From Candidatus Tayloriibacteriota bacterium (GTDB lineage: Bacteria; Patescibacteriota; Minisyncoccia; Phycocordibacterales; PALSA-1337), in NCBI GenBank assembly GCA_903839695.1, contig CAIMDI010000026.1:1-62830 (forward strand): DNA of 62,830 nt, read 5' to 3'. Positions 7,279 to 62,826 of the stretch are shown here, piece after piece. Made by a program: the position numbers and the translations under genes. The first letter of the stretch is position 1, and every line of letters starts with the position of its first letter. The notes under the pieces were generated by a model that was not told the DNA's origin, did not search any database, and was given only the letters and a program-made list of their open reading frames with translations.

Positions 7279-7308
7279 TTGACAAATATATACTTAATGT
7301 GCTATGGT
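7279..7308 (+). promoter_or_regulatory. sigma-70 type promoter for 7403-8107
   Basis: TTGACA 7279-7284, 18-nt spacer, TATGGT 7303-7308. A roughly 95-nt leader follows, containing a 9-bp stem (ATATTTCGA/TCGAGATAT). Confidence 0.4.
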
Positions 7309-7402
7309 ATCAACTGAGGATATTTCGAGTGGCTAAGTGGTCATCGAGATATGTAGTAAACAAAGGCTATAATTAGCCAAAATTGGAAAGTACATTAAGA
7401 AG

Positions 7403-17364: not shown

Positions 17365-17577
17365 TTAATACTCGAAGTTTCCTGATTCTAACAGTTGCTC
17401 GCAACCACATTTTTGGCAGCGAATGAACTTGATTGTTTCCATCCGATTAGGACGATTAATACTTTCTCGATGCACAAAGTTGAAAATGCTTCGGCACTCG
17501 ACACATTTCCCTCCCCAGTACCTCTTTAACAAGGCGACAATGAGGATTACCGTAACTGCTACGATTGCAATCTTCAT
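17365..17577 (-). CDS. membrane-anchored zinc-ribbon protein (GC-richer cassette)
   Basis: 70 aa. N-terminal TM MKIAIVAVTVILIVALL, then CVEC...CQKCGC (two CxxC pairs). Composition is distinct from the flanks. Confidence 0.5.
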   Translation of the reverse strand: MKIAIVAVTVILIVALLKRYWGGKCVECRSIFNFVHRESINRPNRMETIKFIRCQKCGCEQLLESGNFEY

Positions 17578-29281: not shown

Positions 29282-29563
29282 TTACTTCATTACTGGCATT
29301 TTTCCGGGCTCAATAATGTCCCAATGCCCGTGTGGTTCACCATTTTCAGGCATTGTGTATGACGCAACTTGCCAGCCGACTTCAGACGGGTAGTCTTGGC
29401 CCGGAATAACATTGACCCATCTTTGTTTTATACCAAGACAAGTATGCACTGTGCCACCAATTGCATTCACAAGCCTACTTGTTGAATCACACCTTACAAT
29501 CCTCACTATCATCAAGTTCGTGTCTTGCGCAGTAAACTCATGCGGTTGTTTGTAGCTTAGCAT
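29282..29563 (-). CDS. hypothetical 93-aa protein (GC-richer cassette)
   Basis: No TM and no motif. 40/100 G+C counted in 29401-29500. Own promoter. A GTGAGGA/TCCTCAC hairpin lies at 29248-29276 downstream. Confidence 0.45.
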   Translation of the reverse strand: MLSYKQPHEFTAQDTNLMIVRIVRCDSTSRLVNAIGGTVHTCLGIKQRWVNVIPGQDYPSEVGWQVASYTMPENGEPHGHWDIIEPGKMPVMK

Positions 29564-31041: not shown

Positions 31042-32338
31042 CCTTATAAAATCCTTAATTATTCTTTTTGTATTTTTATACGCACTTATTTATATTACAC
31101 ATGCGGAGACTGCAGATGAATTAAAAATTAAAATTAATTCTACTAATGATTCAATACTAAAATTAGAGCAAGAAATTAAACAATATCAAAGTGAAATAGA
31201 CTCCATATCTAAAGAGAAAGATTCACTAAGCAGTGCTATAAAAGTTTTAGATGTTTCCAAAAAAAAACTTCAAGCAGATACTAAAATTACTGAAAGTAAA
31301 ATTTCAAATAAAAATCTTGAATTAAAAGAGTTGAATGCTCAAATAGGTGACAAGAGCGAGAGAATCCTTAATAGTAAAAGAGTAATAACACAGTCTTTAT
31401 ATAATATATCTCAATTAAATTCAGCTTCAACTATAGAGACCGTGCTTGGGAAAAAATCATTTTCTGAAATATGGAATAGCGCAGAAGAATTAAATACTTT
31501 GCAAACAGGAATGCAAGGTGAGATAAAAGATTTGTCTTCTTTGAAAGTAAATCTTGAGGGCAACAAAAAACAAATTGAAAAAATGAAGGCAGAACTTGTT
31601 GCATTGACTGCTGATTTGAAAAATCAAACAAAAGTAATTGCAGATAATATTGCTGAAAAGAATTCAATACTTTCTGACACAAAAAATACAGAAACAGGAT
31701 ATATTCAATTAATGAACACTCGTAAAGCACAAAAAGAACAATTTGAAAGTGAAGTTTTAAACTTTGAGTCAGCATTAAAAGCTATAGTTGATCCAAACAG
31801 TTTGCCCCCAAGTGCTTCTGGTGTCTTGAAATGGCCATTAAGTACTATTCGAATTACGCAATATTTTGGTAACACAGCATTCTCAACAAAAAACCCACAA
31901 ATTTATGCTGGTAGAGGTCATAATGGTATAGACTTTGCTGCTTCAGTTGGTACACCTGTTAAAGCTTCTTTGAGTGGTATTGTTGTTGATACTGGAAATA
32001 TGGACTTAGTAAATAATGGAAAATGTAAGAACTCTGGATCATATGGAAAATGGGTGCTTATACGTCATTATAACGGTTTATCAACACTATACGCACATTT
32101 ATCACAAATAAATGTAAGCGCTAAACAAAAAGTATCTGTGGGTGAGACTATTGCATTGAGCGGATATTCTGGAACAGTTGTACCTCAAGGCCCAAGAGGT
32201 GCGCACTTACATTTTGTATTATACGCCTCTGATGGAGTGAGCGTTGAAAAATTAACAACAGGAACAAATTGTCGAGGAGCAGTATTTCCAATGGCAGTAA
32301 AATCTGCGTATCTAAATCCTCTATCATATTTACCATAA
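31022..32338 (+). CDS. M23 peptidoglycan metalloendopeptidase with coiled-coil N-domain (EnvC-like)
   Basis: Signal/TM, long coiled coil, then GHNGIDFAASVGTPV...YAHLS...GAHLHF. Confidence 0.8.
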   Translation: MPFKTSSLIKSLIILFVFLYALIYITHAETADELKIKINSTNDSILKLEQEIKQYQSEIDSISKEKDSLSSAIKVLDVSKKKLQADTKITESKISNKNLELKELNAQIGDKSERILNSKRVITQSLYNISQLNSASTIETVLGKKSFSEIWNSAEELNTLQTGMQGEIKDLSSLKVNLEGNKKQIEKMKAELVALTADLKNQTKVIADNIAEKNSILSDTKNTETGYIQLMNTRKAQKEQFESEVLNFESALKAIVDPNSLPPSASGVLKWPLSTIRITQYFGNTAFSTKNPQIYAGRGHNGIDFAASVGTPVKASLSGIVVDTGNMDLVNNGKCKNSGSYGKWVLIRHYNGLSTLYAHLSQINVSAKQKVSVGETIALSGYSGTVVPQGPRGAHLHFVLYASDGVSVEKLTTGTNCRGAVFPMAVKSAYLNPLSYLP

Positions 32339-32367
32339 TTTTAAAAATAATAAATAATCAAAATAGT

Positions 32368-33531
32368 ATGTATAGAAAAACTTATATTGAAGTAAATGAA
32401 AGTAATTTAGAAAGTAATGTTAAAATTCTTTTAAATAACTATCCAGATTACAAATATTATTTTGGTGTTGTAAAGGGTAATGTCTATGGATATGGATATT
32501 CCTCTGTAAAATGTTTAATAAAATCAGGTATAAATTATATTGCAGTGTCTACTTTAGAGGAAGCTTTGTGTGTTAGAAATGAAGACAAAGACATACCTAT
32601 ATTATGTTTACAACCAATTCACTTGGAAGATATACCAGATGCTATCAAAAATAATATTACAATTACGATTTCAAATTTCGAATATTTTAAACAATTTTTA
32701 ACATTAAATTTTAATCAAAAAATTAAAGTACATATAAAAATCAATTCTGGTTTCAATAGACTAGGTATTGCTGATAAGAATGAAGTATTAAGTATATATA
32801 ATTCACTGAAAGAAAATACTTTCGTAGAAGTGGAAGGTATATTTTCGCATTTTGCTACTACTGGTATTTATGATAAATATTGGGATAATCAACTTTCAAG
32901 GTTTATTGAATTAACATCATTAATAAATATTAAAGAAATTTCTATTATACATTTTGGTAGAAGCTTAACATTGCTAAATCACGGAAAAATTGATTTTTGT
33001 AATGGAGTACGTATAGGTGTTGTTATGTATGGTTACAATCACACGCCTAAGAAACAAAAAGGACTTAAAGGTTTTGTAAAAAACTTAGTCAAAAAATACA
33101 ACTTTAAAATGCAAAATATCAGCCCTACTTTTACTGTATCTGAAAGCCTATTTAAACCATCTCTAAGTTTTTATAGTGAGATAACTGAGATAAGACATGT
33201 AAAAAAAGGACAATTTGTTGGATATGGAGCAGTATTTAAAGCCCACAATGACTCAATTATTGGTTTTCTATCAGCTGGTTATGCAGACGGATTTTTAAAA
33301 AGTAATGTAAATGGAGATGTTGCTATACACAATAAAAGATATAAAATTATTGCTGTAGATATGGGAATAATTACAGTACTGATAGATGAATCAGTTAAAG
33401 TTTATGATAAGGTAGAATTGATTGGAGAAAATATTAAAGCAATAGAAGTAGCAAGAAGAAATAATACAACGGTTTATGAAATCTTATCATTAATAAAAGA
33501 GAGTATTCCTAGAGTAAATAATAGATTATAG
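32368..33531 (+). CDS. alr: alanine racemase
   Basis: Start at ATG 32368 (MYRKTYIEVNESNL). VVKGNVYGYG (PLP lysine). ...GYADGF.... Confidence 0.85.
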   Translation: MYRKTYIEVNESNLESNVKILLNNYPDYKYYFGVVKGNVYGYGYSSVKCLIKSGINYIAVSTLEEALCVRNEDKDIPILCLQPIHLEDIPDAIKNNITITISNFEYFKQFLTLNFNQKIKVHIKINSGFNRLGIADKNEVLSIYNSLKENTFVEVEGIFSHFATTGIYDKYWDNQLSRFIELTSLINIKEISIIHFGRSLTLLNHGKIDFCNGVRIGVVMYGYNHTPKKQKGLKGFVKNLVKKYNFKMQNISPTFTVSESLFKPSLSFYSEITEIRHVKKGQFVGYGAVFKAHNDSIIGFLSAGYADGFLKSNVNGDVAIHNKRYKIIAVDMGIITVLIDESVKVYDKVELIGENIKAIEVARRNNTTVYEILSLIKESIPRVNNRL

Positions 33532-33634
33532 GGATACAAAAAGTTAGTAGGGAAGGCATTAGGTGTTAATTAAATGCCCTTTTAAGAAATAAAAAGTAGT
33601 GTTATAATTTAGATAATAATTAATAAAATATTTT

Positions 33635-33922
33635 ATGATTAAATGGATCGTTATCGTTATAATAGGATTAGTTGTACTAGGCTATTTAGGTTTTGATGTT
33701 AGAAAAGCAGTTGAATCTCCAACTTCACAAAGTAATATAGAGTATGTAAAAAACGCAATAGTATATTTGTGGAATAAATACTTAGCTAAGCCTGCAATAT
33801 ATTTATGGACTAACTTTAAAAATCTTATTTGGGATACAGCAGTAGATAATTTAACAAAGATTAAAAATGGTCAACCAACTAATGTTCAAACACTACCGTC
33901 TCCACTACCCAATAATCCATAG
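33635..33922 (+). CDS. small membrane protein, hypothetical
   Basis: 95 aa with N-terminal TM MIKWIVIVIIGLVVLGYLGF. A TGTTATAAT box lies about 30 nt upstream. Confidence 0.45.
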   Translation: MIKWIVIVIIGLVVLGYLGFDVRKAVESPTSQSNIEYVKNAIVYLWNKYLAKPAIYLWTNFKNLIWDTAVDNLTKIKNGQPTNVQTLPSPLPNNP

Positions 33923-33998: not shown

Positions 33999-34616
33999 AT
34001 GGCTTACAATACAAAATGGACAATAGAAAAAATTAAAATTGGTTTCAAATCTTTTTATAATGAATTCGGACATTATCCTACTGCATATGAAATAGATAGA
34101 TATGCAAAACTTCCAAGTTCAAGACAAATTCAGAGAGTATTTGGCGGACTTATTGAAATTAGGAAAATGCTAAGCTTAAAAGAAACTGACTTTACTAAAG
34201 GCGAATTTAGCTCAAAACGAGCTCTTAAAATCACTCAGAAGGCTTCGACAGCAAACCTAGATGTGTATACATACCTTGTAAAAACCTTTGGAGTTGATTA
34301 TGTTCAGAAGGATTACAATTTAGGAGATGATAAAAGAAATAGAATTGATTTTCATGTAATTAATAAGAAAGGTGACTTTTTAATAGATATATTTGCACCA
34401 AGTAATACAAGAACATTAATTGGTTGTCTTAATAGCAAATTAAAAACTTATGGAGAGTTAAATATTGATTTGCCGATAATATTTTTAATGATGAATGATT
34501 CAATAACAAGTCAGAAGCTAGGGGATATAGTAAGAAATAAAAAAAGTAAGTTAAGACAGAGACAACAAGTGATGACATTCGAGGATCTTAAGTCATATTG
34601 TAACTCTAGAAAATAG
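33999..34616 (+). CDS. protein with homing-endonuclease-associated (HNH-repeat-like) HTH module, possible nuclease
   Basis: WTIEKIKIGFKSFYNEFGHYPTAYEIDRYAKLPSSRQIQRVFGGLIEIRKMLSL fits the W-x-E-x-I...G-x-x-PT...PS....FG.. repeat seen next to homing/restriction nucleases. The C-terminal part (RIDFHVINKKGDFLIDIF) is unassigned. Confidence 0.4.
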   Translation: MAYNTKWTIEKIKIGFKSFYNEFGHYPTAYEIDRYAKLPSSRQIQRVFGGLIEIRKMLSLKETDFTKGEFSSKRALKITQKASTANLDVYTYLVKTFGVDYVQKDYNLGDDKRNRIDFHVINKKGDFLIDIFAPSNTRTLIGCLNSKLKTYGELNIDLPIIFLMMNDSITSQKLGDIVRNKKSKLRQRQQVMTFEDLKSYCNSRK

Positions 34617-34652
34617 TGAATAAATAGGGAACAGCTTTATATAATATGTACT

Positions 34653-34693
34653 TGTCGCACAAGCTATCGTCTTAAAAGATATATTGTGCGACA
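34653..34693. repeat. inverted repeat TGTCGCACAA / TTGTGCGACA (10-bp arms, 21-nt spacer)
   Basis: Arms at 34653-34662 and 34684-34693, the same arm sequence as the hairpin at 33957-33974. Together the two bracket ORF 33999-34616. Confidence 0.6.
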
Positions 34694-34928
34694 TAGTATC
34701 TCAATCTATATATAGCTTCAAAATAGACAAAAATGACTACCCCCTCTTTATAGAACAGTAATAACTAAATATCTTAAAATTACTTACAGGATTAATCAGT
34801 GATAAGTTTTGATTCATATTCTTTAAGATATATATTATCTTTTCAAATAGTAGATTAGTTAACAAGATAAATTGAAATTAGTACTTTATTTATAAAACCG
34901 CACTAGTAACACGGTAAAGATCAATTCC

Positions 34929-35198
34929 CTATTTGATATAGTTCTTAGTCCACCACTTTTTTATAAATGGTAATGATTGTGTTGAAAGAAAGTAACCTAA
35001 GGTCGGTATAATAGCTCCAAGTAAAAAATTATTTGCTCCGATAACGTAGAGTGCAATAGATGCAAACACATATGTTATAACCAGTATAGAGAATGCTCGT
35101 ATACGGCTTATTTCCCAAGCTTTATTGATTTCAACTTTCTTATTACGATCTTTGACGAGAATTATTTCTTCCTCAATTTTTTTTATTCTATCTTCCAT
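34929..35198 (-). CDS. small two-TM membrane protein, hypothetical
   Basis: 89 aa. Charged N-terminus then two hydrophobic helices. Host-like AT-rich composition. Confidence 0.5.
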   Translation of the reverse strand: MEDRIKKIEEEIILVKDRNKKVEINKAWEISRIRAFSILVITYVFASIALYVIGANNFLLGAIIPTLGYFLSTQSLPFIKKWWTKNYIK

Positions 35199-35276
35199 GA
35201 TTTTTTAATTATATCAAATAAAAAGGAGCCCACCAATACTTGGCAGACCCCTTTTACGTTTTGAAGAGTGATCGAA

Positions 35277-35471
35277 TCAGGCATCCTTTTTTCCGGTTGT
35301 ATGATTGCCTTCGCCACCGAAGAACTTTAGGACAACAAAGGCAAGGGCAAACATCGTTGCACCACCCTCCGTCAATTGTTGAACGGTTGGTATACCACGA
35401 ACCACAGTCAGAAGAATGCAAGAAACGATTGTAACTCCCAACGCACATAGCAAAGATTTTTTTGTACTCAT
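35277..35471 (-). CDS. small two-TM membrane protein (GC-richer)
   Basis: Of three overlapping ORFs here, only this one gives a coherent membrane protein: LLCALGVTIVSCILLTVV ... MFALAFVVLKFF. Confidence 0.4.
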   Translation of the reverse strand: MSTKKSLLCALGVTIVSCILLTVVRGIPTVQQLTEGGATMFALAFVVLKFFGGEGNHTTGKKDA

Positions 35472-35606
35472 AAAATTACCGCCATTGAGTATCTAAACTT
35501 ACCCACTCCATCTTTATATATATTGACAAACTCCCCTTTTATAAAGTAATATATTCGCAGTCAGTTTAGTTGAGTAGTTAAACAAAACGTGAGGAAAAAC
35601 ATTATT

Positions 35607-35918
35607 ATGAATGGAGTGATAAAATGCGGTGCACCGAACATAAGCAATACAAAAGTGCTCGTGAAGATTAATGGTGAAGAAAATGAAATATGCGTTGAGA
35701 CCGGAAATTTCCTTTTCGTAAACATCATGGATAATCACAGCATAATCCCCGGCTCGCTGACAAGATATCAAAATCTGGTTCAAGATTTTAAAGATGATAA
35801 GAGAAGACACCCACCCATTAGGGTTGGTGACAGAGTGGTAGTTGAAGATATTCTTGAAACACCCACTATCATCTATGTTGTCATCAATCCTGGTGATCAG
35901 AGGAAATTGTCAGATTGA
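35607..35918 (+). CDS. hypothetical protein (GC-richer)
   Basis: ATG 35607 (a GTG alternative lies at 35589). TTGACA at 35525-35530 upstream. Followed by two hairpins. No motif recognised. Confidence 0.4.
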   Translation: MNGVIKCGAPNISNTKVLVKINGEENEICVETGNFLFVNIMDNHSIIPGSLTRYQNLVQDFKDDKRRHPPIRVGDRVVVEDILETPTIIYVVINPGDQRKLSD

Positions 35919-35960
35919 GACAGTTCGCATGGGCTTCTAAGCCCACACTGACTAAACAAA

Positions 35961-35991
35961 ACTGCGTTCTTTATGAACGCAGTTATTTTTT
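35961..35991 (+). terminator. rho-independent terminator
   Basis: ACTGCGTTC-TTTAT-GAACGCAGT followed by TATTTTTT. Preceded by a second hairpin, TGGGCT-TCTA-AGCCCA, at 35930-35945. Confidence 0.8.
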
Positions 35992-36003
35992 ATCTACATT
36001 GTT

Positions 36004-36084
36004 TTATACTAGCTTTCCAGCTTCTATGACGTGACGGACCAGAGTATTTGTATACTCTACTTCATTGTTCTACCAAGCTGTCTC
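36004..36084 (-). pseudogene. fossil copy 1 of the gap 3' end
   Basis: Minus-strand translation ..ETAW*NNEVEYTNTLVRHVIEAGKLV*. 65/79 nt identical to 37064-37144 at a constant offset of 1,060 nt. In-frame stop. Confidence 0.8.
36024..36055. repeat. 32-nt perfect direct repeat, copy A
   Basis: CTATGACGTGACGGACCAGAGTATTTGTATAC, identical to 37084-37115. Confidence 0.95.
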
Positions 36085-36313
36085 CGACTCATGATTTTGG
36101 CGTAAATCCAGCCGAACATTATTGGCAGTGCCACTAAAAAAAAGTCTGCTAGTGGAAACCAGCCTATACCAAGTTCATTCATACAGTAAGGAGGATTTGT
36201 AACATCGGCTCTAAAACAAAAAGTCTCCGTTATGTAGCCTCCTAGGTATGGGGATGCGATTGCTAAGCATAAACCTATTACGACTCCTATTAACCAATAT
36301 TTTTTGTGTTCAT
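36057..36313 (-). pseudogene. small two-TM membrane ORF interrupted by a frameshift in an A6 homopolymer
   Basis: ATG at 36313 reads MNTKNIG*. One extra A in the run at 36300-36305 would give MNTKKYWLIGVVIGLCLAIASPYLGGY...FFLVALPIMFGWIYAKIM...*. That 86-codon frame is open (36060-36317) but has no upstream start. Confidence 0.3.
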
Positions 36314-36317
36314 GTTT

Positions 36318-36407
36318 TTATATTAATCGCCCCGCCTTCACCACATGTTGTACCAACGTATTTGTATAACTTACTTCATTATCGTACCACGTCAGCTCCA
36401 TAAGCAT
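36318..36407 (-). pseudogene. fossil copy 2 of the gap 3' end (diverged, frame intact)
   Basis: Minus strand encodes MLMELTWYDNEVSYTNTLVQHVVKAGRLI*. It is colinear with the live C-terminus WYDNEMGYTNTLVRHVIAAGRLI* and 18/23 identical to it. Confidence 0.75.
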
Positions 36408-36576
36408 ATCTATCACAATTTTAAGAAAATCCCCCCGCTCGCTCACCTTTCCAATACTCAACGAATTAAGTGCTGAAAAGGTGGGCGGTCTGGTGTGATT
36501 ATTTTAGTTTCAAAGGACAGCTAAATCATATGCAAACTCCTGACGAATAGCAAGCAATAGAGCCGTATTTAGATAC

Positions 36577-36606
36577 TTGACAATACTACCTTATTAATGC
36601 TATAGT
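36577..36606 (+). promoter_or_regulatory. promoter of the orphan receiver gene
   Basis: TTGACA 36577-36582, 18-nt spacer, TATAGT 36601-36606. AGGA SD at 36614-36617. Confidence 0.45.
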
Positions 36607-36619
36607 ACGTATTAGGAAC

Positions 36620-36982
36620 ATGAAAAAAATACTCATTGTAGAAGACGGCCAAAAGTGGAGTGTCCAGTATCAACAGGATTTAGGTGGTTATGAGGTTAGC
36701 CTGATTATTGCCGAACGCGCTGATGAAGCACGGCGACAATTTGAAGTAAATCCTGATGTTGCTGCCATCGTCATGGACGGCTGTTTGTTTTCCGAAGCAC
36801 CAAACACACTCGAGCTTGTAAAAGAGTTTCGAGTCAAAGGTTATACAGGACCGATAATCGCTAACTCAAGCGATTATAATAAGGAGCTTCAAGAAGCTGG
36901 TTGTGATCATACTTGCAAGTATGATTCGAAGGGATTTATCCCAGACCAACTTATTCAGCTTCTTGACCTGAAACATAAATAG
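36620..36982 (+). CDS. stand-alone response-regulator receiver (CheY-like) domain
   Basis: 120 aa. KILIVEDG, AAIVMDGCL (phospho-acceptor Asp position), GPIIANSS. No output domain. Confidence 0.55.
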   Translation: MKKILIVEDGQKWSVQYQQDLGGYEVSLIIAERADEARRQFEVNPDVAAIVMDGCLFSEAPNTLELVKEFRVKGYTGPIIANSSDYNKELQEAGCDHTCKYDSKGFIPDQLIQLLDLKHK

Positions 36983-37031
36983 TGGTTCACCCACTCGTTG
37001 AGAAGGCATCGTTAAGACCCTAGAGATTTAC

Positions 37032-47884: not shown

Positions 47885-48478
47885 ATGAGCGCCAATAACT
47901 ACATAAAAATAAAAGAAATTTCTCCTGATAAATTCAGGGTTGCAGAGAAAGACTTTGAGAGTGATATGGACATAAGTCACTTGGGCGATTTCGACCTCCT
48001 CAAATCAGCTATTGAAAAGGCTGAGGGTTACATTTCGGACATAGAGTATGAAGTTGAGTATGGGATACGGTTTGCTTTATTCGATACAAAAGTTGATTCT
48101 AAGGATTTTGATACCTGGAATGTTAAGAAAAAACACACAGAGTTAGAAGAAAGTCGTCTATATACCACACGAGAAATTTGGTGGTGCAGACTCGGTCTTA
48201 ACATCGGTTTTGAACAAGATGGGAGTGGTGAAGAGTTTTTGCGCCCTTGTGTAATTGTACGAGGATTTGGTCCACGAGTATGTATGGTAATTCCCCTTAC
48301 AACATCTGGAAGCAAACACCCTCTTCGCGTACCTCTCGGAGAAGTTGATGGAAAAACAGCAACGGCTCTTCTTTCTCAGATACGTTCGATAGACACTCGC
48401 CGACTTGTTGAGAAGATAGGCTTTCTTGATAAAGAAAAATTTGAGGAGCTAAGAAAAAATGCCAGAAGTTTATTCTGA
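47885..48478 (+). CDS. MazF/PemK-family toxin domain with ~90-aa N-terminal extension (GC-richer cassette)
   Basis: Residues ~95-197: EIWWCRLGLNIGFEQDG..EFLRPCVIV....VCMVIPLTTSGSKHPLRVPLG...ALLSQIRSIDTRRLVEKIGFLD fit the PemK/MazF pattern. The N-terminal acidic 90 aa are unassigned. Confidence 0.7.
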   Translation: MSANNYIKIKEISPDKFRVAEKDFESDMDISHLGDFDLLKSAIEKAEGYISDIEYEVEYGIRFALFDTKVDSKDFDTWNVKKKHTELEESRLYTTREIWWCRLGLNIGFEQDGSGEEFLRPCVIVRGFGPRVCMVIPLTTSGSKHPLRVPLGEVDGKTATALLSQIRSIDTRRLVEKIGFLDKEKFEELRKNARSLF

Positions 48479-48875: not shown

Positions 48876-49427
48876 CTATTCAAACCTATCAAACGTCACC
48901 CATCTTAATTTATCAAAGTTAAAACCGTAATGTTTGTATACAAATCTTGGATCTGAATCGAAACGTTCTTCCCATTTTAGTCCTAACTTTTTAACAATAT
49001 TTTTCAATTCTTCAACAGAATTTCCTTCAAATTCTGCATACACAGGAATACGTGGCCATTCATCAATATCTATTGTTACTCCATCAAGCCTTAGTGTGTG
49101 CCTTCGCTTTTCAACTACTCTATAGGCAATTAACCCTATAGATTCCAAGAGAATTTTTGCCTCATCAAAATCTGAAACTTCAAATTCTACTTCTTCAACA
49201 CTGTCAATTTTTTGTTCTTTATTATGTTTATAAGTTAATTTTATTTTACTATTAACTTTTCTCAATCTAATTAATTTGCCTTCATTAATCCAAACTAAAT
49301 CTTTATCATAAAATATTATCTCATCGAGCTTGACCTCACCCTCGTCAATAGCATCAAATTTCTTTAACTTTTCAATCAAATCTTTCTTATCAATATCAAG
49401 AAACCTAGTTTCGATTTCAATTTTCAT
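48876..49427 (-). CDS. CYTH-domain (triphosphate tunnel metalloenzyme) protein
   Basis: MKIEIETRFL (the ExExK-type signature) and a beta-barrel length of 183 aa. Confidence 0.7.
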   Translation of the reverse strand: MKIEIETRFLDIDKKDLIEKLKKFDAIDEGEVKLDEIIFYDKDLVWINEGKLIRLRKVNSKIKLTYKHNKEQKIDSVEEVEFEVSDFDEAKILLESIGLIAYRVVEKRRHTLRLDGVTIDIDEWPRIPVYAEFEGNSVEELKNIVKKLGLKWEERFDSDPRFVYKHYGFNFDKLRWVTFDRFE

Positions 49428-53016: not shown

Positions 53017-53697
53017 CTATAAAATATATTTTCCGGCTTTATCATCTCTAATTATTTTGCCTTTTTCCATAGTTATAACTCTTCCACCAACTTCATCAAC
53101 TACGCCCTTATTGTGAGTTGTAAGTAAAACAGTTGTGCCCATTTTATGAATTTTCTGAAGAATTTTTATAATTTCAAAAGTATTAATAGGATCGAGATTA
53201 CCAGTTGGCTCATCGGCAATGATAATGTCAGGTTGAGTGACAATAGCTCGAGCTATTGCTACTCTTTGCTTTTCCCCTCCAGATAATTCACCAGGAAAAC
53301 TCCAAATTTTATTGCCCAAATCAACCAAATCAAGAACATGAGGAACATCAGAATGAATTTCAGCATCAGTACGACCAGCAGCTTCCATAGCAAAAGCTAT
53401 ATTTTCGTATGCGGTTTTATTTGGAATTAGTCTATAGTCTTGGAATACTGTGCCTATTCTGCGACGAAGTTTATTCATTTCACTTTTCTTAAGCTTGTTT
53501 ATATTTGCGGATTCGAAGAATACAGCACCTTCTGTAGGTTTGTCTTCTGCGATAAGCATTTTGATTAGAGTGGTTTTTCCAGCGCCAGAATGACCCACTA
53601 TAGTGATAAATTCGTTTGGTTCTACACCAAAACTAACTTGATCAAGTGCAATAGACTCATCTGGATATATTTTTGACACTTTATCGAAATAAATCAT
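53017..53697 (-). CDS. ftsE: cell-division ATP-binding protein FtsE
   Basis: GHSGAGKTT, LSGGEKQRVAIARAI, IIADEPTGNLD. Confidence 0.9.
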   Translation of the reverse strand: MIYFDKVSKIYPDESIALDQVSFGVEPNEFITIVGHSGAGKTTLIKMLIAEDKPTEGAVFFESANINKLKKSEMNKLRRRIGTVFQDYRLIPNKTAYENIAFAMEAAGRTDAEIHSDVPHVLDLVDLGNKIWSFPGELSGGEKQRVAIARAIVTQPDIIIADEPTGNLDPINTFEIIKILQKIHKMGTTVLLTTHNKGVVDEVGGRVITMEKGKIIRDDKAGKYIL

Positions 53698-57245: not shown

Positions 57246-57327
57246 GCGCGGGTGGCGAAATTGGCAGACGCACTTGCCTTAGGAGCAAGCGGGGTAACCC
57301 TTGGAGGTTCAAGTCCTCTCCCGCGCA
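57246..57327 (+). tRNA. tRNA-Leu (anticodon TAG)
   Basis: Acceptor GCGCGGG/CCCGCGC, anticodon arm CTTGC-CTTAGGA-GCAAG, long variable arm, T arm GGAGG-TTCAAGT-CCTCT. The trailer is CAA. Confidence 0.88.
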
Positions 57328-57336
57328 CAATGTAAA

Positions 57337-57373
57337 ATAAGCATAATTTTGATTATGCTTATTTTATTTTTTT
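57337..57373 (+). terminator. terminator of the tRNA cluster
   Basis: ATAAGCATAAT-TTTG-ATTATGCTTAT followed by a T-run. Confidence 0.8.
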
Positions 57374-57409
57374 GTTAATGTAGTTGCCATTTGGCTGTTT
57401 ATATGTTTT

Positions 57410-57437
57410 TTGACAATTCAACTTTTTAGTGCATAAT
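57410..57437 (+). promoter_or_regulatory. promoter of paralog 1
   Basis: TTGACA 57410-57415, 16-nt spacer, CATAAT 57432-57437. Confidence 0.4.
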
Positions 57438-57496
57438 ATCTGAGGATAAATTAGAATTTTGACAGTCAAACAATCAAAACAAAAATAGTTGAGAAT

Positions 57497-58600
57497 ATGA
57501 GTAATCCTGAAAATGAAGGTTATGTACAGGTTAAGGACAAGGCTCTTGAAGAGAGCATTATTAAAATCATCAAGAGTCGATTTGTAGAATTAGAAGAATT
57601 GTTGAAACGTGATGATGTTGCTATCACCAATGCTGGCAATGTTTGTAGTTTATTTTGGGAGATTGATAATCTCATCAAAAAAAAATTGGAACGTAGGGAA
57701 ATATCGCTAGAAAATAAGGGGGTGAAAGAACTCCTAGAGCGATTGGCTGGGATAGAGAAAATTATTAATGAAGAAAATATAATCCTGAATAAAAGTACGA
57801 GTTCAGCAGTTCAAACAAACAACACGACGCTGACGCCCAAAAAGCAGGTAGAAGTGAAACCACCAGCTACGAAAGTGTCTGCATCGACCACAGCTCCCAA
57901 AAAGCCGGTTGCGCCGACAGTTCCTGCAGAAGTAAGGGTACAGACTCAAACACCAGTGGTGCATGCCACTTCGACGCCACAGCCCACGCAAGTTGTGGTA
58001 CCGCCCACAGTGCAAGCAATACCGAGTCCAAAGTCGGCTCAACAGACATCTGTTTGGATCATGACTGCTGTTTTTCTTTTGATAATATTAATTGTACTGG
58101 AAGCAGGACGTTTTCTTTACAATGGAGGTTCAGTGCCCACAACAACCTCTCAAACACTGGAGAAACAAACCGTTAGCACGACTGAGAAATCAGAAGGTGT
58201 GCTTGCACCTGCAGTTTGTGTTTTAACGCCGGATAGTTCCACAAAATCAGACCCCACAAGGTCATGGCCCAAGGATGTAAATCCAAAGACCCTGATACAA
58301 GCGGAGGTTCCGAGTAAAAGACCAATGCAGGTTGAGTATAAAATTCAACCTTTTGGGGATACACTTTTTGTGTTCCCTGTTCATGTGGAATGCAATATCT
58401 CAGTGCACCCAGATCCGAGGGATGAAAATGGTATTTACAGAAAGGATTTGGTTAAAGTGTTCGTGGATGGGATAAAAACAGGTACGGCTGATGACAATTC
58501 AGGTACAGCAAATAATAATTATGGTGAAATCAAATCTGTACGTATCTGGAACCTATCTCCACGAGCTACGAAGATTTACATCCATTTTGGTGATAGTTAG
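57497..58600 (+). CDS. bitopic membrane protein, paralog 1 (helical N-domain, P/T/V-rich linker, TM, HPDPRDEN C-domain)
   Basis: 367 aa. TM VWIMTAVFLLIILIVLEAG. The C-domain shares SWP..V.PK, GDTLF.FP and HPDPRDENGIY with 58801-59937. No family recognised. Confidence 0.7.
   Translation: MSNPENEGYVQVKDKALEESIIKIIKSRFVELEELLKRDDVAITNAGNVCSLFWEIDNLIKKKLERREISLENKGVKELLERLAGIEKIINEENIILNKSTSSAVQTNNTTLTPKKQVEVKPPATKVSASTTAPKKPVAPTVPAEVRVQTQTPVVHATSTPQPTQVVVPPTVQAIPSPKSAQQTSVWIMTAVFLLIILIVLEAGRFLYNGGSVPTTTSQTLEKQTVSTTEKSEGVLAPAVCVLTPDSSTKSDPTRSWPKDVNPKTLIQAEVPSKRPMQVEYKIQPFGDTLFVFPVHVECNISVHPDPRDENGIYRKDLVKVFVDGIKTGTADDNSGTANNNYGEIKSVRIWNLSPRATKIYIHFGDS
58492..58507. repeat. 16-mer TGACAATTCAGGTACA, copy 1 (coding, 3' end of paralog 1)
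   Basis: An identical 16-mer recurs 250 nt downstream at 58742-58757, in the leader of paralog 2. Confidence 0.9.
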
Positions 58601-58616
58601 GGCATAGCCCAAACAA

Positions 58617-58649
58617 GGCGGCGAACACATACGTGTTCGCCGCCCTTTT
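58617..58649 (+). terminator. strong terminator (12-bp GC-rich stem)
   Basis: GGCGGCGAACAC-ATAC-GTGTTCGCCGCC then CTTTT. 32 nt are identical to 59957-59988. Confidence 0.9.
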
Positions 58650-58686
58650 CGTATTCATAATCATTTTTATGTACTATTTGTAGGTA

Positions 58687-58714
58687 TTGACAAAACTACA
58701 ATTTAGTGTATAAT
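58687..58714 (+). promoter_or_regulatory. promoter of paralog 2
   Basis: GGTATTGACA with TTGACA at 58687-58692, 16-nt spacer, TATAAT at 58709-58714. An ~85-nt leader ends in AAAGGAAG. Confidence 0.5.
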
Positions 58715-58741
58715 GGTATGGTAGTGATAGTTATGGTTCAT

Positions 58742-58757
58742 TGACAATTCAGGTACA
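58742..58757. repeat. 16-mer TGACAATTCAGGTACA, copy 2 (non-coding leader)
   Basis: Identical to 58492-58507. Confidence 0.9.
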
Positions 58758-58800
58758 ACAAAATCCATGTAATACATGGTGACAGAAAAGGAAGAAAATT

Positions 58801-59937
58801 ATGCCAAATTCAGAAACACCACAAACACCGTCTGCGACACCAGCGGTAGCAGCTCCAGCGCCAGTAGCAACACCTGCAGTAGTTCAGACACAAACAGTGC
58901 CTTCTACTCCAGCGCCAGTAGCAACACCTGCAGCGACGGAGGCATCAGCAACAAAGCAAGTCAAGACATCACCTGAAGCAGAGGTTGCTAAAGAGCTGAT
59001 GAATTTCTCAAGACGGTTACTGCAATTGAATACAGATGTACTCAGCCCGCTGGGACCACAGAACACATCGGCCAAGATCAACCGGTCTATCACTAATATC
59101 GATATACTCTTGAAGACTCTAGACACAGAATACCCGAATACAAGGGAAGTTTCCAATCTGAGGAATTCCCTTGATAAAATCGTGGAATTATGGGCCGCAC
59201 TGAATCAGCCGAAAGCTGCTCCAGCAATAGCACCTGCTCCGGAGGCAACACCTGCACCTGCAGCGACTGCACAACCCGTGCAGACACCTGCACCGGCGAC
59301 ACCGCCTGCGACACCAGTCGCACCAGCGGTAGCAGCAACACCTGCTCCGGAGGCAACACCGGCACCTACAGAGCCTCAAACAGTAGTGACGGGGGCTTCA
59401 AAAACATACACCAGAATCAAAGCTGTAGCAGCAGCAGTGATTATCTATATAGTCAGCTTTTGCTTGATAAGCGTTGTGAGTGAGCAAAAGAACATAGTCA
59501 CTGAACGGGAAAGACAAACAGCAGAGATAGAAAGGCCTGCTGAACCCAAATTGTCGCCGGCACCAGTTGGCGTATTCATACCTGATGACACAAGAAGCAC
59601 AACTAATGCTATTGTTGGTAAGACATGGCCCAGTGGTGTGTCACCGAAAGAGATTGTTGAAATTGAGATTCCAGTAATCACACCAGGACAGACAAACGTG
59701 ATAATATACAAGGTTCCACCCAATGGGGACACATTGTTCAAATACCCAAGGAATCTACCGTGTCACGTCGAGACTCACCCTGATCCAAGAGATGAAAATA
59801 ACACCTATAGTAGGAGGTTGCTGATAGATCATTTTGATGGTGAAAAAGCGGACGGAATCAATTTCCGGTATATCCGCTCATATCGAGCGTTGAATACTTC
59901 AAATTTGCCACAAATTATCTATTTTTGTTTTTACTAA
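58801..59937 (+). CDS. bitopic membrane protein, paralog 2
   Basis: 378 aa. Two P/A/T-rich tracts, a helical domain, TM AVAAAVIIYIVSFCLISVV, and a C-domain with TWP..VSPK, GDTLFKYP, HPDPRDENNTY. Confidence 0.7.
   Translation: MPNSETPQTPSATPAVAAPAPVATPAVVQTQTVPSTPAPVATPAATEASATKQVKTSPEAEVAKELMNFSRRLLQLNTDVLSPLGPQNTSAKINRSITNIDILLKTLDTEYPNTREVSNLRNSLDKIVELWAALNQPKAAPAIAPAPEATPAPAATAQPVQTPAPATPPATPVAPAVAATPAPEATPAPTEPQTVVTGASKTYTRIKAVAAAVIIYIVSFCLISVVSEQKNIVTERERQTAEIERPAEPKLSPAPVGVFIPDDTRSTTNAIVGKTWPSGVSPKEIVEIEIPVITPGQTNVIIYKVPPNGDTLFKYPRNLPCHVETHPDPRDENNTYSRRLLIDHFDGEKADGINFRYIRSYRALNTSNLPQIIYFCFY
58853..58933 (+). repeat. in-frame 27-nt perfect direct repeat (two copies, 54 nt apart)
   Basis: CTCCAGCGCCAGTAGCAACACCTGCAG at 58853-58879 and 58907-58933, encoding APAPVATPA. 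Confidence 0.95.
59231..59367 (+). repeat. in-frame 29-nt direct repeat (one mismatch, 108 nt apart)
   Basis: CACCTGCTCCGGAGGCAACACC(T/G)GCACCT at 59231-59259 and 59339-59367, encoding APAPEATPAP. Confidence 0.9.
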
Positions 59938-59956
59938 TAAGGGCAAATTAATCAAA

Positions 59957-59988
59957 GCGGCGAACACATACGTGTTCGCCGCCCTTTT
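59957..59988 (+). terminator. strong terminator, duplicate of 58618-58649
   Basis: GCGGCGAACACATACGTGTTCGCCGCCCTTTT, identical over 32 nt. Confidence 0.9.
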
Positions 59989-60110
59989 TTATACAAATTT
60001 GACTTTATATAATAATTATGTTATCCTAATATTGGACTATAGATTTCATCATTAGTTCATTAACAAATAATAATCACCAAAATGGTGAAAAATTCAGAAA
60101 GTGAGGACTC

Positions 60111-61049
60111 ATGTTTAAAACAGATAGTGCAGAAGAGGAGGAAATGATAAACTTAATACTCTTTGTTCTGTTGTTCTTGATGGTGACGTTCATATCGTCG
60201 TTACTCTTACATTACCTGTTCAACCTGAGCTCAAGCGTCTCAGGATTTACGGGCTTATCAATAACATTCTTTGCAACAACCTTTTGGTTGTGGAAATGGT
60301 TCTTCGTGGTAATAGAGCCAAATTGTGTAATTGTACTTCAAAACACATTAATGGATTCAGGATCATCAATGAAGCCTAACGGCGAGATTGATCTATTGTA
60401 TATTCCCCACAACCAAAGGGCATGCAAGAAGCCATTGACTGTCAGGTGGCCGTGGGAGAAATTGGTCGGTAAAATCAATCTGAAAGATGATAAAATTCAG
60501 ATACCCAGAAAAGTTGCTGTTCGGGACAAAGATGGACAACTCTGGGATGCTGAATTCACAATTATACTCACGCCCTTGCCGTTTGGAAAGTCTATCATCA
60601 GATACTTCTTGGTTAGCAATGAAGTAGCCGATGCATTTTTTTCAAACTATTATATGGAGCAATTTGCAATTCTCTTTTCTAAGATGTCTGGAGAGGATGC
60701 TCAGAGCGAAACCAATGAAAATAGTTTTAGAAGCAGGTTCAGTTGCTTACTTGGTGGTGAAACTTCAGTATCTGAAAAAGAAAGACAGTTTGCAAGATTC
60801 GCCTCAGTTATCATTACATCTATAAGACCAGAAAAATATCGTCAAGAAATAGGTCAATTGGATAAAATGATCGATGCTAAATTTAATGCAATCGATAAAT
60901 TAAGAAAAATTGTTGATCCCAATACTGCTGCAGTGATTGTTAGTCAGGCGTCCGGAGAATCCACTGGGTCGATTATTATTGCAGGCTTACCTGCAGGTAT
61001 GCAACACTTTAGTGGTCTACTGGATAATCCAAAGAAAGGAGGCAAATGA
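60111..61049 (+). CDS. two-TM membrane protein with SPFH/band-7-like core (tentative)
   Basis: GAGGA SD. TMs LILFVLLFLMVTFISSLLL and LSITFFATTFWLWKWFFVV. Then VIEPNCVIV...WPWEKLVGKINLKDDKIQIPRKVAVRDKDGQLWDAEFTIILTP, reminiscent of the SPFH beta-alpha core. Confidence 0.4.
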   Translation: MFKTDSAEEEEMINLILFVLLFLMVTFISSLLLHYLFNLSSSVSGFTGLSITFFATTFWLWKWFFVVIEPNCVIVLQNTLMDSGSSMKPNGEIDLLYIPHNQRACKKPLTVRWPWEKLVGKINLKDDKIQIPRKVAVRDKDGQLWDAEFTIILTPLPFGKSIIRYFLVSNEVADAFFSNYYMEQFAILFSKMSGEDAQSETNENSFRSRFSCLLGGETSVSEKERQFARFASVIITSIRPEKYRQEIGQLDKMIDAKFNAIDKLRKIVDPNTAAVIVSQASGESTGSIIIAGLPAGMQHFSGLLDNPKKGGK

Positions 61050-61480
61050 TAACTACTGAACAGGAGTGTACAAATAAAGGTAAAAAAATTGGATACATTG
61101 GTTTGGTGTGCATAGTCATATTCGTACTACTCTGGATTAGGGCCACCTCAGGTGTACCGTTTCTAACAACCACCACACCAACATCCATGATTCATCAAGA
61201 AAGGAATGAAGTATTCATTTGTGACATTCGAACTGATGGATGGACCAAGTTCGAAACCTTGGGGAAAACATACTCCACAGCTTCCGTCAAAAGTAACGGT
61301 GTCACTCTGAAATACCAAGTTGGTATAAACAATCATGTTAAATCTATTGTGCTTCCAAGTGAAATTGGGAATATAGTAGATTTCGGTGACCCAAAAGAAA
61401 TCAAGGTGTTATACATCAAGCTTATGGAGGGTCAAGGCGTTGAGAAGTCAACGGTAATTCTGCAACGTAGAATGGAATAA
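61046..61480 (+). CDS. single-TM beta-rich protein, NfeD-like position (tentative)
   Basis: ATGA overlap with the 60111-61049 stop. AGGAGG SD. TM IGYIGLVCIVIFVLLWI. No motif recognised. Confidence 0.4.
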   Translation: MITTEQECTNKGKKIGYIGLVCIVIFVLLWIRATSGVPFLTTTTPTSMIHQERNEVFICDIRTDGWTKFETLGKTYSTASVKSNGVTLKYQVGINNHVKSIVLPSEIGNIVDFGDPKEIKVLYIKLMEGQGVEKSTVILQRRME

Positions 61481-61494
61481 TCCGTAACAAGTGA

Positions 61495-61526
61495 AGGGCT
61501 GGTCGCACGTAAGTGCGACCAGCCCT
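61495..61526. terminator. 14-bp-stem bidirectional terminator
   Basis: AGGGCTGGTCGCAC-GTAA-GTGCGACCAGCCCT, between convergent genes. Confidence 0.85.
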
Positions 61527-61548
61527 AAACCTTTTAATAAAACAAATT

Positions 61549-61851
61549 TTAGAATGGTGAGCTTATATTTAATGTATCATAAACAAAATTTATAATACCA
61601 TACACAGAAATCATTATTCCTATTCCAATAACACCATATAATATGTGATTTCTACCAGTTTTTCTAGCCTCAGTGTCCTCAGACCCTTTAAAAAATCCGA
61701 TAAGACCCCATATAAATAAGAGTATAGCTAAACCAAACACAAACTCTACTATAGGTGCAACAATATTAGCAACTATTTTATCTACAATAGAATTTATCAT
61801 GGAATCAGTATTCGTACTGGCAGCATGAACAGTTTTAAGTAAAAAATTCAT
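61549..61851 (-). CDS. TrbC/VirB2-like T4SS pilin-family protein, copy 1
   Basis: 100 aa. Signal-like N-terminus, two TM helices separated by GSEDTEARKTG. YGVIGIGIMISVYGII. Confidence 0.55.
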   Translation of the reverse strand: MNFLLKTVHAASTNTDSMINSIVDKIVANIVAPIVEFVFGLAILLFIWGLIGFFKGSEDTEARKTGRNHILYGVIGIGIMISVYGIINFVYDTLNISSPF

Positions 61852-61874
61852 TATATTTTACAAAACAGTTTAGA

Positions 61875-62249
61875 TTATTGATTTAATGGAATTGCTTTAG
61901 GAATGTCTGTGTTTTGAACAGTTTTATCATTTGTAATAAAAGTTCTTTTTAAAATATAAACTAGACCCCAAATAGATATGATCACAAATAATGCTATAAC
62001 TCCGTACATAATAGAATATCCTCCTTTCTTTCTATCATCTTCAGAACCAGCAATTAAATACCTGATTGTATTAAAAATAATATATACAACTGCAGCTGAG
62101 ATGAGAATAACTATAAATGAATTACTTAATGATGTGAATCTTGTAAAAATATCATCTACAGTATTAACAGCACCTGTTACAGTGCCTGAACTTTGAGCAA
62201 AAGCTGATAATGGGGACAATGCAACTAAAAAAGCAAATATTTTTTTCAT
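61875..62249 (-). CDS. TrbC/VirB2-like T4SS pilin-family protein, copy 2
   Basis: Signal peptide MKKIFAFLVALSPLSAFA/Q. YLIAGSEDDRKKGGYSIMYGVIALFVIISIWGLVYIL. Confidence 0.55.
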   Translation of the reverse strand: MKKIFAFLVALSPLSAFAQSSGTVTGAVNTVDDIFTRFTSLSNSFIVILISAAVVYIIFNTIRYLIAGSEDDRKKGGYSIMYGVIALFVIISIWGLVYILKRTFITNDKTVQNTDIPKAIPLNQ

Positions 62250-62343
62250 GTTTAATTATTTAATAATAATACTTATGTGTCTATATTTTAACAATATAAT
62301 ATGATTAATACAAATATAACTGGGGAAAGAATAAATCAGTAAA

Positions 62344-62826
62344 CTAACGAACCATTGGGATCTGCTGATCACTAGGTGTAGCTTGAGGAATATAGGATGA
62401 AGAGTTACCACTACTAGGACCGACCGAAGAATTTGCTGGCGGCAAAACGCTGTTTGAAGTATTGTTAGATGACTTATAGCTACCAAAAGGAAATGTAGGT
62501 TGTGTATTGGTTAGATTAAAAGTGTTTGTTAAAATGTAAACTAATCCCCACAGAGAAAGAATAACAAAAAATCCGATAACACTATACATCACATACAAAC
62601 CTGCCTCCTTCTTTTGTGCAACATCATCACCACCCGCAATAAAGTATTTGAATATGTTATATACAAACATTAGTATGGCTAGAGAAATCAAAAATGTTAT
62701 AGCATAATCAAAATACGTAGTAGCCAATGTTATTAATGATTTTAATGTTTGTTTTTCTGCTGCGAAAGAGAAAACTGGTAATAAAGTTGTAAAAACTATA
62801 CCTATTTTTATTATTATTTTTTTCAT
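62344..62826 (-). CDS. TrbC/VirB2-like T4SS pilin-family protein, copy 3, with S/N/P-rich tail
   Basis: Signal peptide ...LLPVFSFAA/E. YFIAGGDDVAQKKEAGLYVMYSVIGFFVILSLWGLVYIL. 60-aa low-complexity C-terminal tail. Confidence 0.55.
   Translation of the reverse strand: MKKIIIKIGIVFTTLLPVFSFAAEKQTLKSLITLATTYFDYAITFLISLAILMFVYNIFKYFIAGGDDVAQKKEAGLYVMYSVIGFFVILSLWGLVYILTNTFNLTNTQPTFPFGSYKSSNNTSNSVLPPANSSVGPSSGNSSSYIPQATPSDQQIPMVR

Follow-up and report, generated by a model that had tools for sequence, protein, structure and literature searches.

We analysed a 62,830-nt stretch of DNA, hereafter the window (contig CAIMDI010000026.1 of assembly GCA_903839695.1, Candidatus Tayloriibacteriota), in which a module of four plus-strand genes spans positions 57337 to 61526. 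The genes, labelled g1 to g4 in their order on that strand, come straight after tRNA-Leu(tag), the last of a four-tRNA cluster, and encode two paralogous bitopic proteins (g1 and g2), a predicted SPFH/Band-7 protein (g3) and a small membrane partner (g4). Beyond g4, three VirB2-like pilin genes lie on the opposite strand, in an array cut by the window end. A previous sequence-only reading had called the same four open reading frames (ORFs), which were recovered here at identical coordinates and with the ATGA overlap that couples g4 to g3; it had not recognised the adjoining pilin genes as part of the conserved block. The four genes make up a membrane-scaffold module of the SPFH/stomatin type, complete with surface-protein partners, which is found in this chromosomal slot beside a pilin array in many Paceibacteria, ultra-small members of the candidate phyla radiation. 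With a probability of about 0.6, we interpret it as a lineage-conserved, rapidly diversifying envelope module of the Paceibacteria that is built around an SPFH scaffold and linked to the pilin array. It is probably a cell-surface system and seems not to have been described before.

The IF-2 encoded in the window fell within the Paceibacteria (Parcubacteria, candidate phyla radiation (CPR)), where the best GTDB species representative was 60% identical. A closer relative was found on a 729-kb metagenomic contig (locus L088), whose IF-2 and RbfA were 87% and 94% identical to those of the window, respectively. Contigs of the species itself were 99.9–100% identical over the module, with 100% identity in at least 17 of them. 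L088 carries the block at precisely the position it has in the window, following RF1, IF-2, RbfA and the tRNAs. These tRNAs also come before the module in L091, making tRNA-Leu(tag) the conserved upstream boundary of the slot. A g3-family gene together with a small partner was present in L085/86/87, L088/89/90, L091, L092–94, L096, L097 and L098. The order of bitopic protein(s), SPFH protein, small partner and convergent VirB2-like pilin array was observed in the window, L085–87, L088–90, L096, L097 and L098, and also in the remote P0026 subclade (L092, 23% identical). Convergent T4SS_pilin genes came next in all seven distinct blocks with downstream sequence (window included), whilst proteins carrying the g1/g2-type C-domain were encoded directly 5' of the pair in L085, L088, L091 and L096. 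In L098, the block was intact though its upstream flank differs. That the four gene types belong together, as the sequence-only reading had supposed, was thus borne out by their co-occurrence in other genomes.

We expanded this comparison to 80 GTDB loci fetched around IF-2, defining a pilin array as three or more pilin genes. Such an array occurred 3–7 kb downstream of IF-2 in 32/80 loci, and in 22 of these 32 the slot before the array contained an SPFH gene and, after it, one for a membrane partner. Tandem PF18895 pilin arrays have been described for the phylum Patescibacteria and are reported to be essential in a cultured Patescibacterium (PMC12102498). The genes downstream of the module resemble these arrays in being tandem PF18895 pilins, but lie near IF-2/RbfA and GyrA rather than virB4 (within 10 kb, L088). 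In both L088 and L097, the array was followed by genes for an SBP, a methyltransferase and GyrA, and VirB4 was not in the stretch fetched (within 10 kb in L088). The adjacent SPFH module is not mentioned in PMC12102498, and our literature searches found no description of a link between an SPFH module and a pilin array, in line with the earlier proposal of an undescribed system. SPFH operons themselves are known; new in this one are a partner other than NfeD, the hypervariable bitopic surface proteins and the fixed location beside pilin arrays across a CPR class.

This adjacency could mean that the module is dedicated to the assembly or quality control of the VirB2-like pilins. In that case, an SPFH cage together with g4 would corral or chaperone the small two-transmembrane pilins within the membrane before polymerisation, and g1/g2 would be accessory. 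The succession of SPFH gene, partner and convergent array in 7/7 g3-family blocks with downstream sequence and 22/32 GTDB loci, its persistence in the one block with a different upstream flank (L098), and the reported essentiality of pilin arrays (PMC12102498) are all consistent with such a role. However, transcription is convergent and the module and the pilins are thus not in one operon. The pilins were also 56–76% identical compared with 31–36% for g3/g4, and their much slower evolution argues against tight co-evolution with g3 and g4. Furthermore, the function of the Agrobacterium type IV secretion system (T4SS) is independent of SPFH proteins (PMC8656257). We regard a dedicated pilin factor as possible but doubtful, and retain the broader reading of an SPFH-scaffolded envelope module linked to the array.

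The identity of g3 was established by its predicted fold and by transitive profile matches. Its AlphaFold2 model, built from a 35-sequence alignment, had a mean predicted local distance difference test score (pLDDT) of 89.2 and a predicted template-modelling score (pTM) of 0.74. At its N-terminus, two helices form a membrane hairpin; the SPFH alpha/beta core, the C-terminal helices and a basic tail follow. The anchor helices (residues 7–37 and 41–59 in the model) agreed with hydropathy and were kept across the family, confirming the two transmembrane helices proposed from sequence, whereas the C-terminal helices (242–265 and 270–280, followed by a disordered tail) were shorter than those of HflK/C or stomatin. 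When the model was compared with the PDB using Foldseek, the top 50 matches were all SPFH proteins (probability 1.00, E down to 4e-8; template-modelling (TM) scores of 0.68–0.75 against isolated SPFH domains) and included prohibitin, HflK/C, stomatin, QmcA-YbbJ, flotillin, erlin and major vault protein. g3 itself did not match Pfam Band_7 (PF01145) even at E ≤ 10. Band_7 matches were obtained for 6/35 members of its family (best E = 1.9e-7) and for 9/10 genes occupying the same slot in distant Paceibacteria, six of which scored above the gathering score (23.6 bits). A profile seeded with those six positional orthologs recovered g3 and all 35 family members. Given the agreement between the family matches, the positional orthologs and the iterated profile, g3 is a highly diverged SPFH/Band-7 protein, and the SPFH-like segment suspected by the sequence-only reading was borne out by both the fold and the transitive Pfam matches. 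The N-terminal tails of the 35 family members carried a mean of 2.6 Lys + Arg compared with 0.4 in the hairpin loop, which favours a cytoplasmic location for the SPFH domain.

Scans of the g1–g4 proteins against Pfam, NCBIfam, PADLOC and PHROGs found nothing, as did searches of the PDB with the g3 and g4 sequences and their family profiles, and single-sequence phmmer of g1–g4 against the 80 syntenic loci. A word-indexed protein search with g3 retrieved only g3 itself, on 22 contigs. An exhaustive phmmer search of 1.8 billion representatives, using g3, g4 and the g1 C-domain joined as one query, yielded 47 proteins, including ~33 relatives of g3 (21–36% identity), seven relatives of g4 and one protein, P0008, with the g1/g2 architecture. 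The relationship to the distant loci was exposed only by profile iteration and by Pfam searches of the positional counterparts, and hhalign of the g3 family against a single QmcA sequence aligned the right region with low probability. Like the prokaryotic SPFH proteins (stomatin-like QmcA/SPFH1, HflK/C and flotillin-like YqiK/FloT), g3 has an N-terminal anchor, an SPFH core and following helices, and shares an operon with the gene for a small membrane partner. It differs from them in its two-helix hairpin anchor, short C-terminal helices and conserved basic KKGGK-type tail, in escaping Band_7 detection, in its extremely fast evolution, and in the fixed position of its gene beside a VirB2-like pilin array and genes for bitopic surface proteins.

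A g4-family gene lay directly 3' of the g3-family gene, mostly overlapping it, in every locus examined, and the SPFH protein paired with a g4-type partner in L061 itself scored above the Band_7 cutoff. The g4 protein has one transmembrane segment (~15–34; a single hydrophobic stretch by both hydropathy and model), a Ser/Thr-rich linker and an all-beta domain (~52–144) that was modelled with ~9 strands (pLDDT ~70–94, folded as one chain with the g1 C-domain) and is probably extracytoplasmic. The sequence-only reading had called this partner NfeD-like. Its coupling to g3 and its position, which is the one NfeD often takes, stood up; homology to NfeD did not. PF01957 (NfeD) matched neither g4 nor 20 positional counterparts, and hhalign of the g4 family with Escherichia coli YbbJ gave a probability of 0.3%. 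NfeD proteins have three N-terminal hydrophobic stretches (PMC2636767) and a C-terminal five-stranded OB-fold beta-barrel (PMC2636767, PMC4208085). g4 resembles members of that family (YbbJ, YuaF and the PH0471/PH1510 C-domain) in its length of ~145 aa, in being coupled to or co-transcribed with an SPFH gene, and in placing an all-beta domain behind an N-terminal membrane segment. However, it has one transmembrane segment instead of three, shares neither PF01957 nor profile similarity, and has a larger beta domain that Foldseek did not retrieve as an OB fold. No NfeD or OB structure was among the top 50 PDB matches of the joint model, although this is a weak test for g4 because it was folded together with the g1 C-domain as a single chain. 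We thus file g4 as an NfeD analogue by operon position and not as a member of the NfeD family.

These data also bear on whether g3 and g4 form a canonical SPFH–NfeD pair, with g3 being stomatin/QmcA-like and g4 a divergent NfeD that docks its OB domain within the cage, acting in housekeeping membrane quality control (e.g. by modulating FtsH) next to unrelated neighbours g1 and g2. The SPFH fold of g3, the presence of the QmcA-YbbJ complex (8z5g) among its Foldseek matches and the coupled, 144-aa g4 with its general NfeD layout (PMC2636767) fit this explanation, and YuaF shows that NfeD homologs can be as low as 21% identical to one another. Beyond the missing PF01957 and YbbJ similarity, the single hydrophobic stretch and the ~9 strands with no NfeD or OB structure in the top 50, two further observations oppose it: an identity of 31% between congeners is not expected of housekeeping proteins, and g1/g2-type genes consistently co-occur with the pair. 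A canonical pair is unlikely, and we prefer a diversifying envelope module in which the partner has taken the operon position of NfeD. In a subgroup of the GTDB loci (L016, L017, L020, L024, L028, L035, L038, L047 and L048), the SPFH gene was followed by a larger partner (230–400 aa, several transmembrane segments) that forms a family of its own with no Pfam match. The type of partner therefore varies between Paceibacteria lineages.

The paralogy of g1 and g2 was confirmed by their C-domains, which are 37% identical over 150 aa (E = 2e-23), and both proteins share one architecture with a single transmembrane segment each, as the sequence-only reading had described. In g1, this comprises a helical N-domain (~1–100), a Pro/Thr/Val/Ala-rich linker, the transmembrane segment (~186–204) and a C-terminal beta-sandwich (~255–367). 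In g2, the linker holds a 54-nt (18-aa) repeat whose copy number differs between strains, resulting in 378-aa and 396-aa forms. The C-domain of ~110 aa was modelled as a beta-sandwich (pLDDT ~72–92), for which the Foldseek matches (CUB, PliG, cupin and viral jelly-roll structures) were weak and generic, none reaching a TM-score of 0.5. The scans against Pfam, NCBIfam, PADLOC and PHROGs and the structure search revealed no described family that fits it, and the domain is predicted to be a lineage-restricted beta-sandwich of a family that could not be placed; the sequence-only reading had likewise been unable to assign it. The motifs described for it do occur in g1 and g2, whereas one of them, HPDPRDEN, is not conserved past the nearest relatives (YPDCRYSD in L088); the invariants of the wider family were limited to W-P..P, D, P, G, R and N.

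Relatives of the C-domain were few, and each was encoded directly 5' of a g3/g4 pair: P0008 (L085/86), a 577-aa protein (L088), a 340-aa protein (L091) and P0048 (L096). A bitopic protein of L098 is similar and contains the motif GWPAKPV...GDGVAFVTP, but went undetected by the profile. A word-indexed search with the C-domain retrieved a fragment only, and the wider alignment added one new relative, P0048; this type of search is insensitive for C-domain proteins, as full-length g1, g2 and P0008 were not listed. A scan of GTDB genomes for the C-domain motif found nothing. The 577-aa protein of L088 (8046–9779 of that locus) contains six perfect ASAPVTPVAV repeats, and between the tRNAs and the module of L088 lies a minus-strand ORF (7239–8027) for a 262-aa lipoprotein-like product with a third-position G+C content (GC3) of 0.50. 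The layout of g1 and g2 makes an N-in/C-out orientation most likely, and an outside location of the C-domain is supported by P0048, in which it stands behind an N-terminal signal-anchor only. Bitopic envelope proteins such as RodZ, DamX/FtsN-type proteins and anti-sigma factors likewise combine a cytoplasmic helical domain, one transmembrane segment and an extracytoplasmic C-domain with Pro-rich spacers. g1 and g2 share this succession of helical domain, transmembrane segment and C-domain with a low-complexity, Pro-rich spacer, but have no sequence or profile similarity to those proteins, carry their long tether on the N-terminal, presumed cytoplasmic side, and end in an unclassified beta-sandwich.

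Sequence conservation differed sharply along the block. Set against the 87% and 94% of IF-2 and RbfA, the identity between the window and L088 was 56–66% for the pilins, 32% for g3, 31% for g4 and 25% for the bitopic C-domain. The regulatory cores (terminator, promoter and Shine-Dalgarno (SD) site) were kept across five species. Judged from these alignments, the coding sequences appear to be very fast-diverging or exchanged between lineages, whilst the terminator, promoter and SD cores are kept. A mosaic was found in L085, in which positions 1–593 match window positions 58057–58649: the g1 DNA is 97.8% identical up to and including the terminator, beyond which similarity drops to a background of ~75–79% and is undetectable in the coding parts. 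The neighbouring genes of L085 are only 35–79% identical to those of the window, and the shared terminator marks the exact point of the break; this mosaic is either a product of recombination at that terminator or an assembly chimera. In L001 (1–3690), the module is joined at a tRNA-Lys to unrelated genes (L32, NusB-NUDIX and RNase III). Its 312-aa version of g2 and different upstream genes were considered as evidence of mobility and rejected: L001 is a scaffold with a 100-N gap (5554–5653) in the g2 repeat, and the 312-aa g2 is thus an artefact.

A more specific version of the module can be proposed from this pattern, in which the jelly-roll bitopic proteins, SPFH cage, partner and pilin array form one Paceibacteria host-contact apparatus whose coding cassettes are swapped by recombination at terminator/promoter 'anchors', thereby setting host or partner specificity. 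Cassette exchange would explain why protein identity is 25–36% between congeners versus 100% within the species, why G+C content departs from that of the host genome in either direction (see below), and why the 98%-identical block of L085 ends at the shared terminator. We put it forward as a tentative proposal. The divergence also raises the possibility of a membrane-based, fast-evolving anti-phage or exclusion module, an idea to which the hyper-divergent proteins, atypical composition, accessory-looking genes and lack of a visible enzymatic domain lend themselves. PADLOC matches, however, were at noise level (E ≥ 0.02), no effector-like domain was found in the module, and its fixed chromosomal position over class-level distances and tight pilin linkage are unlike the presence/absence pattern of defence islands. 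A defensive role is very improbable, and a surface-directed envelope module accounts for the locus better.

The G+C content of the module is visibly above that of its flanks, a claim of the sequence-only reading that held when GC3 was compared. GC3 was 0.36–0.39 in g1, g2, g3 and g4, non-linker parts included, against a background of ~0.20 (0.14–0.24 in nearly all housekeeping ORFs); the 41 long ORFs of the window, a set that contains g1–g3, had a mean of 0.216 (standard deviation 0.069). High expression was ruled out as the source of this offset, since ribosomal-protein genes had a GC3 of 0.16–0.28. A comparable offset in G+C was found at the module of L088 (0.49–0.57 versus 0.28–0.34), and in the same direction in L085, L092, L096 and L097. 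Across the 22 distant Paceibacteria loci, GC3 was greater in the small partner than in the pilins in 19/22 (p = 0.0008) and in the SPFH gene than in the pilins in 16/22 (p = 0.02), with the sign flipping in the two GC-rich genomes. The G+C offset is a property of the slot in every genome and gives no sign of recent import.

The sequence-only reading had called the module compositionally foreign, which would fit a genomic island recently inserted at the tRNA cluster. In favour of an island are the raised GC3 (0.36–0.39 versus ~0.20), the position directly after tRNA-Leu(tag), the module's own style of promoter, SD site and terminator, and the accessory nature of other high-GC3 ORFs of the window, e.g. 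a MazF fusion. However, positional orthologs occupy the same slot in the relative with an 87% identical IF-2 and class-wide, the G+C offset and SD signals are kept at these orthologous loci, and the module is fully conserved in the contigs of the species. No integrase or recombinase was found among the module ORFs or in their domain scans, nor any att-like or tRNA-derived repeat at the module, nor any phage or plasmid match for it. The recent-import explanation is essentially refuted, and what looked like an insertion is better described as a resident envelope module with a composition of its own. Seven small ORFs with a GC3 of 0.32–0.49 (Table 1) are dispersed among the AT-rich housekeeping genes. 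Their products include an ORFan (234 aa, secreted), a Clp-protease-like protein (174 aa) and a protein with a PemK/MazF toxin as its C-terminal half, and the pattern suggests that accessory genes of distinct composition are interspersed as a mosaic. Long ORFs are scarce in two regions (32338–33635 and 34616–36620), the second of which in part has a raised G+C content (0.37–0.41 over 35001–37000).

The module comprises three transcription units, each with its own promoter and strong terminator (Table 1), and the earlier description to this effect was upheld by a consensus scan and by hairpin energies. The g1 and g2 terminators are one identical 39-nt sequence. The core of the g2 promoter is kept in L085, and the g3–g4 promoter has an invariant TTGACTTT −35 element followed by a leader of ~80 nt with GAAAGTGAGGA at its end. 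The region upstream of g3 could be aligned in five species and contained the terminator, TTGACTTT as the invariant −35, the extended −10 and GAAAGTGAGG. The hairpin between g4 and the first pilin gene is probably a bidirectional terminator. A second TTGACA(A/G)T element was seen within the long leaders, downstream of the promoter (57459–57467 and 58741–58749), and also in the leaders of L085, L088 and L096; this TTGACARTY motif was not enriched across the window.

SD-like sites were present in 5/48 window genes, and g2, g3 and g4 are three of the five. The sites proposed from sequence (AAGGAAG, GAGGA and AGGAGG) all exist, but belong to these three genes and not to the three transcription units; g1 has only a weak GAGAA. 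The remaining 43 genes have no SD site, and in many housekeeping genes a −10 box abuts the start codon, indicating leaderless mRNAs, as had been stated for the housekeeping genes. TATAAT-like boxes were located 6–12 nt 5' of the start codons of most genes, e.g. at 1327, 10039, 20833, 48876–49427 and 53017–53697. Initiation in this genome appears to be largely leaderless or SD-independent, and the orthologous modules also keep SD-like sites where their flanks have none. At the gathering threshold, Rfam detected six tRNAs and nothing else in the whole window.

Table 1 Coordinates of the module, its signals and other features of the window.
Feature	Position	Strand	Details
tRNA-Leu(tag)	57246-57328	+	ARAGORN and Rfam
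g1 promoter	57410-57437	+	TTGACA-16-CATAAT, 11/12 in consensus scan; leader ~60 nt
g1	57497-58600	+	367 aa, bitopic
g1 intrinsic terminator	58617-58644	+	-24.9 kcal/mol; kept in L085
g2 promoter	58687-58714	+	TTGACA-16-TATAAT, 12/12; leader ~85 nt, SD AAGGAAG
g2	58801-59937	+	378 aa, g1 paralog
g2 intrinsic terminator	59957-59982	+	-21.6 kcal/mol
g3-g4 promoter	59999-60027	+	TTGACT-17-(TG)TATCCT, extended -10
g3	60111-61049	+	312 aa, predicted divergent SPFH/Band-7 protein
g4	61046-61480	+	144 aa, small partner; start overlaps g3 end (ATGA)
Hairpin between convergent g4 and first pilin gene	61485-61536		-32.5 kcal/mol
VirB2-like T4SS_pilin gene	61549-61851	-	Pfam PF18895
VirB2-like T4SS_pilin gene	61875-62249	-	Pfam PF18895
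VirB2-like T4SS_pilin gene	62344-62826	-	Pfam PF18895; array (61549-62826) cut by window end
High-GC3 small ORF	7403-8107	+	GC3 within 0.32-0.49
High-GC3 small ORF	17365-17577	-	GC3 within 0.32-0.49
High-GC3 small ORF	20123-20647	-	GC3 within 0.32-0.49
High-GC3 small ORF	29282-29563	-	GC3 within 0.32-0.49
High-GC3 small ORF	35589-35918	+	GC3 within 0.32-0.49
High-GC3 small ORF	36620-36982	+	GC3 within 0.32-0.49
High-GC3 small ORF	47885-48478	+	GC3 within 0.32-0.49

HflK/C, QmcA, stomatin, flotillin and prohibitin oligomerise to form a membrane-attached ring or cage. By analogy with this fold, g3 would insert through its N-terminal helical hairpin and assemble into a similar membrane-attached structure, enclosing a patch of membrane. 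Translational coupling would supply g4 in a fixed ratio, as a single-pass partner in the operon role of NfeD. g1 and g2, with a cytoplasmic helical domain on a long Pro/Ala/Thr tether, one transmembrane segment and an extracellular beta-sandwich, would be likely clients or outputs of the scaffold, serving as surface-exposed binding modules. From the conserved adjacency, the module and the pilin array may act in the same process, namely surface contact with a host or partner cell. Outward-facing beta-sandwich domains and pilins engaged in cell-surface contact would explain the fast evolution; the Pro/Ala/Thr tethers with copy-number variation, the signal-anchor of P0048 and the beta-sandwich C-domain with its weak jelly-roll, CUB and PliG-like matches are features expected at the surface.

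The reading builds on the g3 fold, the g3–g4 coupling, the conserved block and the divergence pattern, all of which were observed, whilst the function is one that we infer from fold and gene neighbourhood. Several points weigh against it. The C-terminal helices modelled for g3 are shorter than the long coiled coils from which known SPFH cages are assembled, which makes the formation of a cage uncertain. With the SPFH domain in the cytoplasm and the beta-domains of g4 and g1/g2 outside, contact between them would be limited to transmembrane and cytoplasmic parts. The joint model of g4 and the C-domain was only moderately confident (pLDDT 73) and its alignments were shallow, and the flanking charges leave the orientation of g4 ambiguous. 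The convergent transcription of the array and the SPFH-independent T4SS of Agrobacterium, raised above against a pilin factor, apply here too, and the adjacency could in part be simply inherited synteny.

A life attached to host cells is presumed for the CPR/Patescibacteria. To our knowledge, the surface machinery that determines contact and host specificity in Patescibacteria is largely unknown outside the Saccharibacteria. A class-wide block of an SPFH scaffold, a non-NfeD partner, hypervariable bitopic proteins and pilin arrays provides concrete candidates for such a contact apparatus. With this block, the SPFH proteins gain a subfamily whose operon partner is of a new kind. The locus is also a natural case in which to study why a distinct base composition and SD-dependent translation signals persist in a genome that is otherwise leaderless and AT-rich. 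Finally, what appeared to be a four-gene 'ORFan island' is an ancient locus in very fast evolution.

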